Below are positions 5,234 to 11,497 of a stretch of 64,000 nucleotides of DNA, in pieces. Position numbers and translations under genes: made by a program. This stretch comes from Candidatus Heimdallarchaeota archaeon (lineage in GTDB: Archaea > Asgardarchaeota > Heimdallarchaeia > JABLTI01), in assembly GCA_018238155.1 (NCBI GenBank), contig JABCTZ010000003.1:96001-160000 (forward strand), in the 5' to 3' direction. The stretch's first letter is position 1. Every line of letters starts with the position of its first letter. The notes under the pieces are model-generated. The model saw only the letters and a list, made by a program, of their open reading frames with translations. It made no database searches and was not told the DNA's origin.

Positions 5234-5262
5234 CGCGAATTCAAATCGCGCTGGGCCCACCA
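5234..5262 (+). repeat. tRNA 3'-end fragment, type B (different tRNA)
   Basis: TTCAAAT-CGCGC-TGGGCCC-A-CCA. Confidence 0.8.
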
Positions 5263-5284
5263 AATTCTTACTTTTTATTTTATA

Positions 5285-6361
5285 TCAAGATGTTTCTTTA
5301 ATCCCATCTTTACCGTTTTTATACTTCTTTTCTTCAATGGTAATTTGTTTTTCGAGTTTATTCATTTGTTCAATTGCTAAATTTATATTATCAACTAAAA
5401 CTAATCCATTTGTAAGACACTCTTCAGCACACCATTTCCCTGCAATTATTAAGTAAGGTTTCATAAATTCGGTGATTTTCTTAATCTTTTGGATGTAATT
5501 GTTGATTTGTTTCTTAATTGCATTAAAGATTAATTCTCTACTTTTGTCCCAAATTAATAATGATACAAAAACAATACCTAGGATTATTTTCCATTCATTT
5601 GGTAATGCAGAAACAAAATCATAACCTTTCTTTAGAATATTGACAATTTTATCAATAAACGATATAATAAAAACTAATAATCCCCCAATTATTAATGCTC
5701 CCAATTCAAATGTTAAAATTCCTAATAAGGGGATACTTGTAGCAAGTATTACAAAAGAAGCTGATCCTTGTTGGTAAATACTAACTATTTCACAAGATTC
5801 CTTTGTACCTTTCCATGATTTTACACCATCAAGATCGAGCATATCCTTATCTGTTGTTATTATCGCATGTTTTCCTAATTTCAAGAAAAGAGCTACATAC
5901 TCTACATCTTCTTTATCTCTTTCAGCTATCATAGCTTCTGCTTTTTGATAAGCTACGTCATCATCTAAATTTTGATATGTGATCTTGGTTAAAAATTTGG
6001 AAGCTATAACTTCAATTTCTTTGGTATCTTTATTACAATATTCAGCGATACTTTCAATGTGTTTGTTAATCTCATTTTTTATTTTATCAGGTGCTACACC
6101 TAAAACAAATGGTGATTCAAGTAATTCCAATAGAAACGAATGATTATATTTTACATAGGCTCTAATATGCTTATTTAAAATGCTTGCATCGATAATGATT
6201 TGCAATGATATGTTTTGACCCATTTCCAAAATATTGTCTTCAAAAAAACCTTTGATTTGTTCCATAATACTTAGATCTATGTGTTTTACTATTTCCTTAA
6301 TTATCTCTTTTCTATTGTCAAATTTCTTTCTAATTCGTTCCCAATCCTTTTCGTTAAACAT
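5285..6361 (-). CDS. PIN-domain protein with C-terminal transmembrane helices
   Basis: IIIDASIL, DKEDVEYVAL and IITTDKD acidic PIN motifs; 2-3 hydrophobic segments after the domain. Confidence 0.7.
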   Translation of the reverse strand: MFNEKDWERIRKKFDNRKEIIKEIVKHIDLSIMEQIKGFFEDNILEMGQNISLQIIIDASILNKHIRAYVKYNHSFLLELLESPFVLGVAPDKIKNEINKHIESIAEYCNKDTKEIEVIASKFLTKITYQNLDDDVAYQKAEAMIAERDKEDVEYVALFLKLGKHAIITTDKDMLDLDGVKSWKGTKESCEIVSIYQQGSASFVILATSIPLLGILTFELGALIIGGLLVFIISFIDKIVNILKKGYDFVSALPNEWKIILGIVFVSLLIWDKSRELIFNAIKKQINNYIQKIKKITEFMKPYLIIAGKWCAEECLTNGLVLVDNINLAIEQMNKLEKQITIEEKKYKNGKDGIKETS

Positions 6362-6444
6362 TTTATCTCAAATCCTTTCCCAGTTTTTCTACACATTTCT
6401 AGCATAAAAAACCTTTCGAGATATTACATTCCATAAAATAAGTG

Positions 6445-6478
6445 TTGGTCACTGGTTCAAATCCTGTACAGCCCACCA
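6445..6478 (+). repeat. tRNA(CAU) 3'-end fragment, type A, intron-less
   Basis: TTGGTCACTGGTTCAAATCCTGTACAGCCCACCA, 33/34 identical to the spliced tRNA. Confidence 0.95.
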
Positions 6479-6497
6479 CTTCATATTTATGAAGAAA

Positions 6498-6746
6498 CTA
6501 AATATCTGAAATTATTTCTTTAATTTCTGCATGAGAGGGAATTCCCTCAAACTTTATTTCACCATCTACAACAATAGATGGTACTGCTTTAATGTTATAC
6601 TTCTTTGCTAATACAACAGCATCAGCTGATTGATTTAAATTATATTCAATGACCTGACATTTTTCACATATTGCTTCTTTTAGTTGTCTTAATGCTGTTT
6701 GGCAAAGAGAACAACCCGCTGTGAATATCTCAAATTTATGACCCAT
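6498..6746 (-). CDS. Glutaredoxin/thioredoxin-like protein
   Basis: CSLC active site, AVPSIVVDG motif. Confidence 0.85.
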   Translation of the reverse strand: MGHKFEIFTAGCSLCQTALRQLKEAICEKCQVIEYNLNQSADAVVLAKKYNIKAVPSIVVDGEIKFEGIPSHAEIKEIISDI

Positions 6747-6847
6747 TAGTGAAAGTCTCCATTATGCTTGGTTACTAAAAGTAACTAAGTTTACATAAGT
6801 ATTTAAATTGGTGGTTTCCAAGTAGAAACAAAGTATTCAGATGGAAA

Positions 6848-7225
6848 GTGATTCCGATTAAAGAGGAAAAAATAATTTGTCCATTATGCAATATTATGAA
6901 TATTGTTAGTAAAAAATGGTCTTTACTTATAGTTAATACAATAGGCAATACTGCAACAATTAGGTTTAGTGAAATAAAGAGAAATCTGCGAACGATAAAT
7001 TCCAAAGTTTTATCTGATAGATTAAAAGAGCTCGTACAAGCAGAGATCATAAACAGGAAATCAAAAGACTCAGTACCACCACATGTTGAATACTCTTTAA
7101 CTGATAAAGGAAAATCATTACGCAAAGCAATAATGCCACTTCTTGATTGGTTTTATTCCTACAATGAGAAAGGAAGAATAACCCCATGCGATATAGCATA
7201 TCAGATTGAAAGGGTTGAGAAATGA
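6848..7225 (+). CDS. HxlR-family winged-helix regulator
   Basis: CP...KKWSLLIV...RFSEIKR...LSDRLKEL...PPHVEYSLTDKG. Confidence 0.9.
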   Translation: MIPIKEEKIICPLCNIMNIVSKKWSLLIVNTIGNTATIRFSEIKRNLRTINSKVLSDRLKELVQAEIINRKSKDSVPPHVEYSLTDKGKSLRKAIMPLLDWFYSYNEKGRITPCDIAYQIERVEK

Positions 7226-9505: not shown

Positions 9506-9533
9506 GACTGCTCAAATCGTACTGGGCAAGCCA
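9506..9533 (+). repeat. Degenerate tRNA 3'-end fragment, type B
   Basis: cTCAAAT-CGtaC-TGGGCaa-g-CCA versus TTCAAAT-CGCGC-TGGGCCC-A-CCA. Confidence 0.6.
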
Positions 9534-9556
9534 GTTTACTTTTGATTCTCCAAAAG

Positions 9557-10150
9557 TCAAAAATCTGTCTTTAAAGAAAATCGTTTATCAATCCACTTCT
9601 TGATATCTTCTGCCGAATCAGATTCGGGATAATATCCTTTAGGATCACCATCTTTGTTTCTTGCTTCTTCGGCTTTATCAGAGACATCTTCAACTTTTAT
9701 CAAATTCCCTTCTTCAAAATCAAATTTTAGTACAGTTTGAAAAGAAGTAGGGCTTGGATATCCCATATGAACGTATTCCTCTAGAATAGGTTTATTACCT
9801 AATAACAATGATCCCGTGAATGGGAGTTTCAAGTATACATCTTTGTAATAATATCTGAAACCCAGACCACGTAATCCCCCTGGATTATATTCTTTTGTTA
9901 TCTTTAAAGGGGCAGTATTATTTATTATTGGAGGTTTTATTCCATCAGCTGTTCGTACCCAAAATCCTTCCATAAACAATTTATTATCCTTTATTTCATA
10001 TCTCATGATATACCCCCTCCAACAGCCTGTAGATGCAGACCTAGTTTTAATTTCAAACGTTTCCGCAGTATCTAATTCGGAGCCTGTGATTCCCACAATC
10101 ATTAATTGATTTCCTTCATAATAGAATAGATCTGAAGCTTGTTGTGTCAT
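9557..10150 (-). CDS. Hypothetical protein
   Basis: 197 aa ORF with a STGCWRGY motif; function unknown. Confidence 0.7.
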   Translation of the reverse strand: MTQQASDLFYYEGNQLMIVGITGSELDTAETFEIKTRSASTGCWRGYIMRYEIKDNKLFMEGFWVRTADGIKPPIINNTAPLKITKEYNPGGLRGLGFRYYYKDVYLKLPFTGSLLLGNKPILEEYVHMGYPSPTSFQTVLKFDFEEGNLIKVEDVSDKAEEARNKDGDPKGYYPESDSAEDIKKWIDKRFSLKTDF

Positions 10151-10208
10151 GATTTAATACCAGTTCTTATTTATGTTTAATTCTCCTTAAATTTACCGAT
10201 TTTCGCAG

Positions 10209-10231
10209 ATAAAACACGCACAGATTCACTA
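10209..10231 (+). repeat. Possible highly degenerate type B fragment
   Basis: ATAAAACACGCACAGATTCACTA versus the 11470 copy TTCAAATCGCGCTGGATTCACCA; lies 17 bp from the stop of the next minus-strand gene, like other copies. Confidence 0.35.
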
Positions 10232-10248
10232 GATTCTTTCTTTATTTC

Positions 10249-11382
10249 TCAGAAAATAAATATCTCTGTCAGAACATCTGTCCATGTTCTTCCAAATTTA
10301 GTATTGAGGTGTGCTATTGCTGATATGGTATTTTCTGATCCTTTTATTAGCAAATTAGTTGGAACCCAAACACAAATACTAACTGTTTTTTGTCCTTCAA
10401 AATTGTATATAGCTGTCCAAATTCCTTCTCCAATGATATGACTTGTATTATCCTTTATCTGCAGGTCAAAGCTTCTGAATTCTTGGTGCCAGTGCCCTGG
10501 ATTGTTAATTGTTACATGTATAATAATTGAAGTGGTATTAATTTCTCCATGCAAAAAGAAACTGTTTGAATAACCTTCTTTATAATTTACATCAACGACT
10601 CCAAAACTGCTTCCCCAATTAGCGTTGGTTGTATCAATAATCGGGACTAGAATAATGATGAAGAGAATGAATCCTGGCATTACAAAATGCTTTTGTTTCC
10701 TTATCTTTTTGAAGGTGATTGCAAAGAAATTGCGAACCCTCTTTTCTTTATCCTCCACCTTCTCTGCTTCCTTTTCCTCTTTACGTTTGAGTAAACCAAA
10801 TGTTGTTACCATTAGAAAAATAATTACTGCACCAACAAGTAGTATGTAACGTCCCATCTCTCCTTGGAAGTAATAGAATATCCCTCCAATGAATGGTATT
10901 TTTCCAATAATTTTACCCACAACCCTGCTTTCATGGATGTTCAATTCATCTACTCGTCCAGTAGGAATCTCAATTACAAAAACATTATTAGAATTCGGGT
11001 TGTCTCCTTTTGTAGAAAACCAAAAATCTCCTGTTTTATTGTCTTGATAAACTCTCGTTACTCGGTGGACTATCGGAATATTCTCTTCTGTGTGGTTGAT
11101 ATAATTAAAAACTATTACATCACCTACTTTTATTTCTGAAGAATCAACTCCTCGTACTATCAACATATCTTTTCGAATGTCGCCAAATTTTCCTCCTTTG
11201 TCAAGTCTTCTTGAACCGTAGTACGTAGGCTCCATTGATTCGGAAGTTACTACTACGAGAGGAGAATTTGTGTTAAGTGCTAAACAAAGTACTTGATTGA
11301 AACTTAGAATGCCTCCCACACAAATTATTATTAATGCACTAATTGCAATAACATCTTTCCGCCAGCTCGTTTTCTTAGACAT
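10249..11382 (-). CDS. Archaeal/ER-type signal peptidase I (S26B, Sec11-like) with C-terminal extension
   Basis: VVTSESMEP (Ser), IVHRV (His), TKGDN, VVGKI...IPFIG. Confidence 0.85.
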   Translation of the reverse strand: MSKKTSWRKDVIAISALIIICVGGILSFNQVLCLALNTNSPLVVVTSESMEPTYYGSRRLDKGGKFGDIRKDMLIVRGVDSSEIKVGDVIVFNYINHTEENIPIVHRVTRVYQDNKTGDFWFSTKGDNPNSNNVFVIEIPTGRVDELNIHESRVVGKIIGKIPFIGGIFYYFQGEMGRYILLVGAVIIFLMVTTFGLLKRKEEKEAEKVEDKEKRVRNFFAITFKKIRKQKHFVMPGFILFIIILVPIIDTTNANWGSSFGVVDVNYKEGYSNSFFLHGEINTTSIIIHVTINNPGHWHQEFRSFDLQIKDNTSHIIGEGIWTAIYNFEGQKTVSICVWVPTNLLIKGSENTISAIAHLNTKFGRTWTDVLTEIFIF

Positions 11383-11469
11383 TTATCTTTCTCTTCCCTT
11401 ATTTTTCTACGTAGCTTTCTCTAATTTGGATAAAGTATTTTCCTTTATATTAAATATTAGAATCAAGTT

Positions 11470-11497
11470 GTGTGTTCAAATCGCGCTGGATTCACCA
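11470..11497 (+). repeat. tRNA 3'-end fragment, type B
   Basis: GTGTG-TTCAAAT-CGCGC-TGGattC-A-CCA; T-stem can pair with G-U wobble. Confidence 0.75.

Follow-up and report, generated by a model that had tools for sequence, protein, structure and literature searches.

Tails of two tRNA(CAU) types, probably versions of one gene, are interleaved in a cassette array of a Heimdallarchaeota genome

The 64-kb stretch of DNA analysed here (the window; G000:C21:96001-160000, on contig JABCTZ010000003.1 of GenBank assembly GCA_018238155.1) belongs to a metagenome-assembled genome (MAG) of a Candidatus Heimdallarchaeota archaeon, G000, which comprises 4.08 Mb at 32.8% G+C and is 90.7% complete with 5.9% estimated contamination. 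Proteins related to one of those encoded here carry Heimdallarchaeota or Asgard group annotations. Near the left end of the window lies a tRNA gene with the anticodon CAU, which heads an array of small cargo genes separated by seven partial copies of tRNA 3' ends. Four of these copies match the resident gene, tRNA-A, while three match another gene, tRNA-B, which occupies the same locus in sister species; below, A, B, C and D denote versions of tRNA(CAU), and A and B copies the tails corresponding to their 3' parts. As to the identity of the tRNA, both tRNA-Ile2 and elongator tRNA-Met are possible. The identity of the copies, their source tRNA, the orthology of the locus, an intron relic in one of the copies and the occurrence of the same cassettes with differing scars in different genomes are direct observations, and we favour, with a probability of about 0.6, the reading that the copies are target-derived scars formed at one tRNA(CAU) locus, such that the B copies were born behind a B-type head gene and later entered, or simply remained in, the array that tRNA-A heads today. 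The comparisons draw on 11 genomes of the genus and 72 other genomes of the class.

All seven copies lie downstream of tRNA-A and on the plus strand, like the tRNA itself, in the order tRNA-A, B1, A1, A2, A3, A4, B2, B3 (Table 1). The head gene, as read by eye, contains introns at position 37/38 (5052-5083) and in the T loop (5104-5134), with an encoded CCA ending at 5152. It is detected at 5013-5149 by Rfam RF00005 (42.3 bits); ARAGORN run without the intron option reported zero tRNAs in the window and so missed it, and with the intron option wrongly joined it to copy A1. A first-pass annotation of the window had placed B copies at 5234-5262, 9506-9533 and 11470-11497, and all three hold. The B consensus 23-mer TTCAAATCGCGCTGGGCCCACCA occurs at 5240-5262 without mismatch and at 11475-11497 with three mismatches, and no match of this kind is expected from 100 dinucleotide shuffles, so that the possibility of B1 and B3 scoring at the background level of shuffled sequence falls away. 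The core of B2 (9511-9533) differs from B at 6 of 23 positions and from A at 9 of 23; a Markov-1 null predicts 0.03 matches of this quality per 64-kb window, and in the sister genome G010 the same 197-aa gene has, at the same distance of about 25 nt from its stop, a decayed B-like copy whose acceptor reads TGGG (L039 9701-9723). The null statistics and this orthologous copy thus support B2 as a genuine B copy. By contrast, the possible fourth copy at 10209-10231 is noise, having more than 8 mismatches to B and being at background level against its neighbour B3 (p ~0.16). The order proposed earlier, tRNA-B-A-A-A-A-B-(B)-B, accordingly stands as tRNA-B-A-A-A-A-B-B once the bracketed element is removed, and the first B copy, although real, had been delimited too short, its true span being 5196-5262. 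Among the A copies, A2 has two C-to-T changes relative to A, which create a chance likeness to a tRNA-Ala 3' end (2 mismatches to C17:151701); it was considered as a third copy class and is read instead as decay of an A copy.

The source of the B copies was predicted by the first-pass annotation to be a separate tRNA, starting with GGGCCCA and located outside the window. Such a tRNA does exist, outside both window and assembly, with a 5' end of GGGCCUA instead: tRNA-B is a second tRNA(CAU), GGGCCUA...UGGGCCCACCA, with a G-U pair at 6-67, and is complete in the congener G007 (C72:2594-2703), where it consists of GGGCCTATAGCTCA, a 31-nt D-loop intron and GCTTGGTAGAGCAGCAGGCTCATAACCTGCTGGTCGCGTGTTCAAATCGCGCTGGGCCCACCA. 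The prospect that related genomes might lack it altogether is thereby removed. As had been envisaged, it heads its own array, although not one containing A copies, since the G007 array holds B copies only and zero A copies. An intron-less form of tRNA-B is found in a metagenome contig from run X5, in which 5051 is joined to 5240 via CCTGCTGGTCGCGTG. A search of the whole G000 assembly returned no tRNA ending in the B sequence, and the tRNA-B 5' half is absent from window positions 1-16000. The only genes of G000 with a CAU anticodon are the initiator and tRNA-A, that is two of the three expected, and hence one CAU tRNA is missing from the MAG; the third was found neither in G000 nor in G002. 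The nearest resident sequence, tRNA-Ile(GAU) on C41, was rejected as the source of B, because it differs from B in the T stem, where both of its two mismatches lie, and in the anticodon. The B 23-mer itself is restricted to the genus, occurring in 7 of its 11 genomes, always in arrays, as against 0 of the 72 other genomes of the class.

The flanks of the tRNA genes bring A and B together. Several tRNA(CAU) genes of the genus have flanks collinear with the window genes left of 331, at 13920-15692 and at 15833-16582; tRNA-A, in G000 and G002, lies between the same left and right core genes as tRNA-B does in G007. In G002 the shared locus contains tRNA-A with the island absent altogether. In G003 the left flank is followed on contig C192 by the tRNA-B 5' half with a 37/38 intron, and contig C89 carries an intron-less tRNA-A together with an array of 33 kb and the right flank. 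The tRNA-C of G010 has the left core gene in common with the other genomes, on a contig that does not reach the right flank. Judged by eye, the genes of versions A, B and C have similar 37/38 introns. A alone is found in G002, B alone in G005, G007 and G009, both in G000, G001, G003 and G004, and C in G010. Sharing these flanking core genes, A, B and C represent one tRNA(CAU) locus in different versions, and the B tails probably stem from the version of the same tRNA gene carried by sister species at this very locus, rather than from another tRNA locus. A fourth version, D, with the acceptor CGAGCCC, heads five B copies in GCA_050009915.1, and one copy of the G003 array (L013:8797-8819) matches the D 3' end exactly, a fourth class of scar that points to a donor with the version D tRNA.

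Several further peculiarities of this locus may be recorded. The tRNA(CAU) of G010 (L039:3947-4054 = G010:C26:65946-66053) looks chimeric, with a B-like 5' half and anticodon stem, an A-like T arm and a compensating change at position 7-66, which suggests that 3' parts of the gene may have been swapped during evolution. In G003 (L024/L043, C192:22080 onward) the tRNA-B 5' half and 37/38 intron continue into unrelated sequence to the contig end, and the only 3' parts found are array copies, located on a different contig; the gene may have been disrupted or have received a very long insertion, or the assembly may be broken at this point. The interval between the conserved left gene and the tRNA (window 332-5012) is about 4.7 kb long compared with 0.16 kb in G002 and 0.9-7 kb in other species, and contains small open reading frames, two DUF2229/HGD-D-like genes and the remnant of a gene termed q623 (see below); in view of these lengths the 5' side of the tRNA is a variable region as well.

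The provenance of the B copies is further indicated by the structure of B1. The near-identity of the sequences upstream of B1 and of the last A copy, remarked upon in the first-pass annotation, is real: the motif GTTGTGTTCCCTT is found at only these two places in the 4.08-Mb genome at the stringency used and corresponds to the sequence of a 53/54 (T-arm) intron. Within B1, positions 5196-5207 represent the variable loop and T-stem 5' strand, 5208-5239 the 53/54-intron relic and 5240-5262 the part from the T loop to CCA. The same split form recurs in G004 (C59 3520-3586), as CTGCTGGTCGCGTG followed by AGAAAGG...CTTTCCGCGAA and then TTCAAATCGCGC. Read by eye, the G004 copy contains a motif resembling the archaeal bulge-helix-bulge (BHB), in which a CGCG/CGCG helix of 4 bp is flanked by the 3-nt bulges TGA and AAT; cleavage at the predicted sites would produce exactly the mature junction GCGTG/TTCAAAT. 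In the minimum-energy RNAfold structure the T-stem strands are paired instead of the CGCG/CGCG helix. On the reading by eye, the insert would qualify as an archaeal BHB intron. A homologous intron is present at the same 53/54 position in the tRNA-Lys(UUU) of G000 (C11:52868-53080, minus strand), a gene which also has a D-loop intron resembling that of G007 tRNA-B and which was detected by neither Rfam nor ARAGORN. Because B1 holds this T-arm intron relic, its template was a tRNA-B gene in its genomic, unspliced form. At A4, the left-part relic of a split-B copy abuts A sequence. A contig of a relative in run X1 contains HicAB, 117 nt, a split-B copy (equivalent to 5201-5266) and then a joint onto A-type sequence, and another X1 contig carries a B copy ahead of the zinc-finger cassette, at the place of A4 in G000; the composite in G000 looks like the product of a deletion between neighbouring B and A copies. 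Two other interpretations of the motif were discarded, namely that GGTTGTGTTCCCTTT is a general cassette-end signal (it precedes a copy only at B1 and A4, and is intron sequence) and that the conserved stub is a relic of an SSV-type split integrase (there is no PF16795 match, and the stub aligns with the tRNA intron).

The A copies, for their part, carry the T-stem allele of the species in which they reside, CCTGT in G000, CCGGT in G003 and CCGAT in G004, and the A copy of G001, where the head tRNA was not found, has CCGAT too. The B copies show a single consensus throughout the genus, even though the core proteins of these species are only 55-77% identical. Against this background the cassettes themselves are shared: the methyltransferase, PIN, HxlR, zinc-finger and 197-aa cassettes recur in G003, G005, G007, G009 and G010 with 70-97% identity, and, core proteins being so much more diverged, have therefore been exchanged horizontally. 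The same cassette may be bounded by different scars. The methyltransferase cassette (93% amino-acid identity, with the aligned DNA near-identical) lies between A2 and A3 in G000 and between B copies in G003 and G005; the PIN cassette (84% DNA identity) lies between B1 and A1 in G000 and between B and a decayed B in G003, where the arrangement tRNA-A, split-B, PIN is found again; and the zinc-finger gene at 11605-11802 (about 71%, translated match) is preceded by B3 in G000 and by C in G010, which also contains the 197-aa cassette. The first methyltransferase copy of G003 is a mosaic, resembling the copies of G000 and G005 in its coding part and the second copy of G003 upstream of it, which shows homologous recombination among cassettes. 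The units are mostly single genes of 0.7-1.9 kb, and their genes stop 12-25 nt from the CCA of a copy.

On the favoured reading, one chromosomal locus would hold tRNA(CAU) as A (G000, G002), B (G007, G003) or C (G010), with a stack of small, integrase-free cargo cassettes behind the head tRNA. Each insertion at the tRNA 3' part would leave a copy of the target tail, comprising variable loop, T arm, 3' strand of the acceptor and CCA, and such copying would explain why the A copies display the local allele. The B copies would have been made where the head was tRNA-B. They could have come to lie behind tRNA-A by either of two routes: lineages may exchange cassette-plus-scar blocks, which homologous recombination reshuffles, or a new tRNA-A may have replaced the head gene while the B copies stayed in place. 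Insertion itself would be the work of a recombinase acting in trans; since no integrase was found, this mechanism, both the order of events and the enzyme, is the part that we infer.

Several facts weigh against this account. The assembly that lacks tRNA-B is incomplete (90.7%, two of the three CAU tRNAs), which leaves room for a second locus in this species; the order tRNA-A, B1, A1-A4, B2, B3 conflicts with a simple rule that places the newest insertion beside the tRNA, and demands block insertion or head replacement; no recombinase was found on any array contig; every genome used is a MAG, and in G003 the locus is divided between two contigs. Moreover, B copies dominate arrays that are not headed by B, behind tRNA-A in G003 and behind tRNA-D in GCA_050009915.1, an observation which also fits a model in which the sites are borne by the cassettes, like the attC sites of integrons. 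Circular cassettes would then carry a B-type site, and a trans-acting recombinase would insert them behind any version of tRNA(CAU) by crossover in the shared 3'-terminal GGCCCACCA, the head tRNA remaining intact and the B site staying with its cassette. The uniform B consensus across such diverged species, the 12-25 nt between gene stops and CCA and the lack of hybrid copies (see below) are all in keeping with this model. It is nonetheless at odds with the A copies, which track the local tRNA allele as target-derived copies should, with the finding of one cassette that has A scars on both sides in one genome and B scars on both sides in another, and with the intron relic of B1, which points to a genomic tRNA gene as the source. 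Furthermore, the left part is assignable to neither class in 15 of 39 B-type copies (a count that includes the heads of G007 and GCA_050009915.1), so that in many of them tRNA identity may start only near the T loop. We consider this alternative unlikely, and regard as similarly doubtful its extension to an integron-like system of the Heimdall group, with tRNA-tail sites on the cassettes, B as a genus-wide 'attC', a recombinase in trans and insertion behind any tRNA(CAU) version, in which case cassettes would flow freely between species.

Less probable still is the model of the first-pass annotation, in which tRNA-B is a separate locus of G000 and cassettes move between tRNA loci by recombination in a shared TTCAAAT core. 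The T loop is indeed identical in A and B, but TTCAAAT is the universal T loop. Of 48 copies scored, 31 could be classified on both sides of the T loop, giving 24 B/B, 7 A/A and 0 discordant, a result that speaks against A x B exchange inside TTCAAAT; a copy family beside a beta-lactamase-family cassette (GATTACTGT to the left, ATCAAATCGCGC to the right) is faintly, not significantly, A-like on its left side. Tail arrays do occur genome-wide, as had been surmised, at tRNA-Lys, three tRNA-Ala, Leu, Pro and other genes of G000, but each contains one class only. The absence of A/B hybrids and the purity of these arrays therefore provide no sign of traffic through the TTCAAAT core, and every tRNA-B with known flanks sits at the tRNA-A locus, between the same core genes, which makes movement between loci unneeded; the tRNA-Ile(GAU) on C41, differing in the T stem, does not serve as a source either. 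What speaks for this model is that G003 holds both tRNA-A and a tRNA-B 5' half and that the G000 assembly lacks one expected CAU tRNA, and it is chiefly because the MAG is incomplete that we accord it some small likelihood. Finally, a derivation of the B copies from A copies by decay, or an assembly of the contig from several strains as a chimera, is scarcely credible: the contamination estimate and the tendency of repeats to break assemblies, many B arrays being on short contigs, leave some latitude, but the changes separating B from A are paired, affecting the T stem on both strands as well as the acceptor, a real tRNA gene corresponds to B, tRNA-A is accompanied by split-B and PIN in the same arrangement in G003, and the tRNA together with the start of B1 (4900-5227) is covered by a metagenome contig of 36.9 kb. 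Public sequencing runs contained at most 10% of the sampled words of the window, and none of these runs covers the whole array.

The search for an enzyme was directed at several families. PF00589 (tyrosine recombinase) matches only C8:50428 and C19:71490 in G000, neither on an array contig, and matches nothing on the array contigs of five congeners; SSV-type integrase (PF16795) gave no match, and the cassette genes contain no recombinase domains. PF01867 (Cas1) has a single match in G000, at C15:365909-366790, a test that a very divergent Cas1 would escape. Directly upstream of the head tRNA(CAU) in G003, G004, GCA_050009915.1 and a JGI contig lies an intact gene, q623 (L013:2852-4723; L040:4820-6697; L045:7992-9851 and 1284-3161; L046:3996-5840), of which the window retains a remnant. 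By sequence the uncharacterised protein matches nothing in Pfam or PDB; its homologues number about 10, of which those bearing a source name come from Asgard MAGs, and homologues lie within other tRNA islands of G000 (C11:77973-80036, C13:171963-173642, C43:6071-6298). Its AlphaFold model (pLDDT 84.5) matches NucS/EndoMS, VC1899 and Card1/Can2-type PD-(D/E)xK nucleases, so that the protein is predicted to consist of tandem NucS/EndoMS-like modules; given a nuclease-like fold and no recombinase match, we do not claim it as the integrase of the array.

Table 1. The head tRNA, tail copies and cassette genes of the array (window positions).
Feature	Position	Strand	Remarks
q623 remnant	4584-4919	+	from a 620-aa tandem NucS-like nuclease gene
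tRNA(CAU) A, array head	5013-5152	+	exons 5013-5051, 5084-5103, 5135-5152
B1, tRNA-B 3' part	5196-5262	+	ACTGGTCGTGTG + 32-nt insert + T loop to CCA
PIN_2-domain protein, 358 aa	5285-6361	-	Pfam PF10130, 1.7e-10
A1, spliced tRNA-A 3' part	6445-6478	+	33/34 identical
Cassette with thioredoxin-like gene and HxlR regulator	6498-7225		thioredoxin-like 6498-6746 (-); HxlR 6848-7225 (+)
A2, tRNA-A 3' part	7373-7409	+	32/37 identical
SAM methyltransferase	7422-8048	-	between A2 and A3
A3, tRNA-A 3' part	8090-8126	+	32/37 identical; identity clear from 8098 on
HicA toxin and HicB antitoxin	8284-8810	-	
Left-part relic of split-B copy, fused to A4	8966-8995	+	GCGCGTG + first 23 nt of 53/54 intron
A4, tRNA-A 3' part, 3'-truncated	8994-9018	+	25/25 identical
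Treble-clef zinc-finger protein	9213-9407	+	
B2, decayed B copy	9502-9533	+	core 9511-9533, 17/23
197-aa protein of no known family and 377-aa membrane protein	9557-11382	-	between B2 and B3
B3, decayed B copy	11467-11497	+	core 11475-11497, 20/23; 26/31 including left part

A second tRNA of the window, at 35469-35584, bears the anticodon GGA and an intron, with no tail copies seen downstream.

If the favoured reading holds, the scars serve as tags of provenance, the A copies having been made locally and the B copies where the head gene was the B version, and the array would therefore be a record of the exchange of single-gene cassettes between species. The tRNA(CAU) gene is itself unstable: its introns occupy four different positions among the versions A, B, C and D, and such variation goes together with insertion activity at the 3' part of the gene. 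The findings thus bear both on the open idea that tRNA introns protect genes from integrating elements and on the open question of how Asgard archaea gain accessory genes without recognisable integrases.

The nearest parallels are found in tandem accretion at the 3' ends of tRNA and tmRNA genes, of which the ssrA islands of Dehalococcoides and the 'gene capture' of Sulfolobus are examples. Here, too, a full tRNA gene is followed by direct partial 3' copies separating blocks of cargo, the older copies are more decayed and the remnants are integrase-free. Direct 3' repeats in the orientation of the tRNA, as expected of elements targeting tRNA genes, bound the inserts (seven plus-strand copies), whereas searches with PF00589 and PF16795 revealed no integrase within or beside the element. 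In the tycheposons of Prochlorococcus every island comes with a tRNA and an integrase of its own (Hackl et al., bioRxiv 10.1101/2020.12.28.424599). The present arrays differ in having no tyrosine recombinase in or beside them, in consisting mostly of single-gene units and in mixing the scars of two head-tRNA versions in one array.

Integron arrays combine an attI site with heterogeneous attC sites and short, promoter-poor, mostly single-gene cassettes. They resemble the array described here in the shortness of the cassettes, including toxin-antitoxin pairs, in the position of a site copy just downstream of each open reading frame, in the sharing of cassettes between the arrays of different hosts and in the heterogeneity of sites, which can reflect different source species. 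On the other hand, an integron has an IntI integrase beside attI, and attC sites with paired R and L boxes; here no IntI-type or other tyrosine recombinase was found near the array, and the gene upstream of the head tRNA in relatives encodes a NucS-like tandem nuclease. The sites are tRNA 3' parts, not the imperfect inverted-repeat hairpins of attC, the genes point to the head site, and the A copies follow the local allele of the target. The array resembles casposons in that insertion takes place at tRNA 3' ends and duplicates the target, which would explain why scars bear the target's own allele and even its intron. Casposon target duplications are 14-15 bp long, unlike the copies of 23-37 nt with ragged left ends seen here, and no Cas1-like gene is present in this array.

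Other tRNA-linked elements have been reported in Heimdall archaea, with no such arrays described (Wu et al. 2022), and in the literature searched we found no description of mixed classes of tRNA tail within one array. Tandem tRNA-tail islands in general are well known; what is new here is that the second class of tail is a sister species' version of the same gene, that the scars record the place of their making, and that one of them, B1, preserves a tRNA intron.

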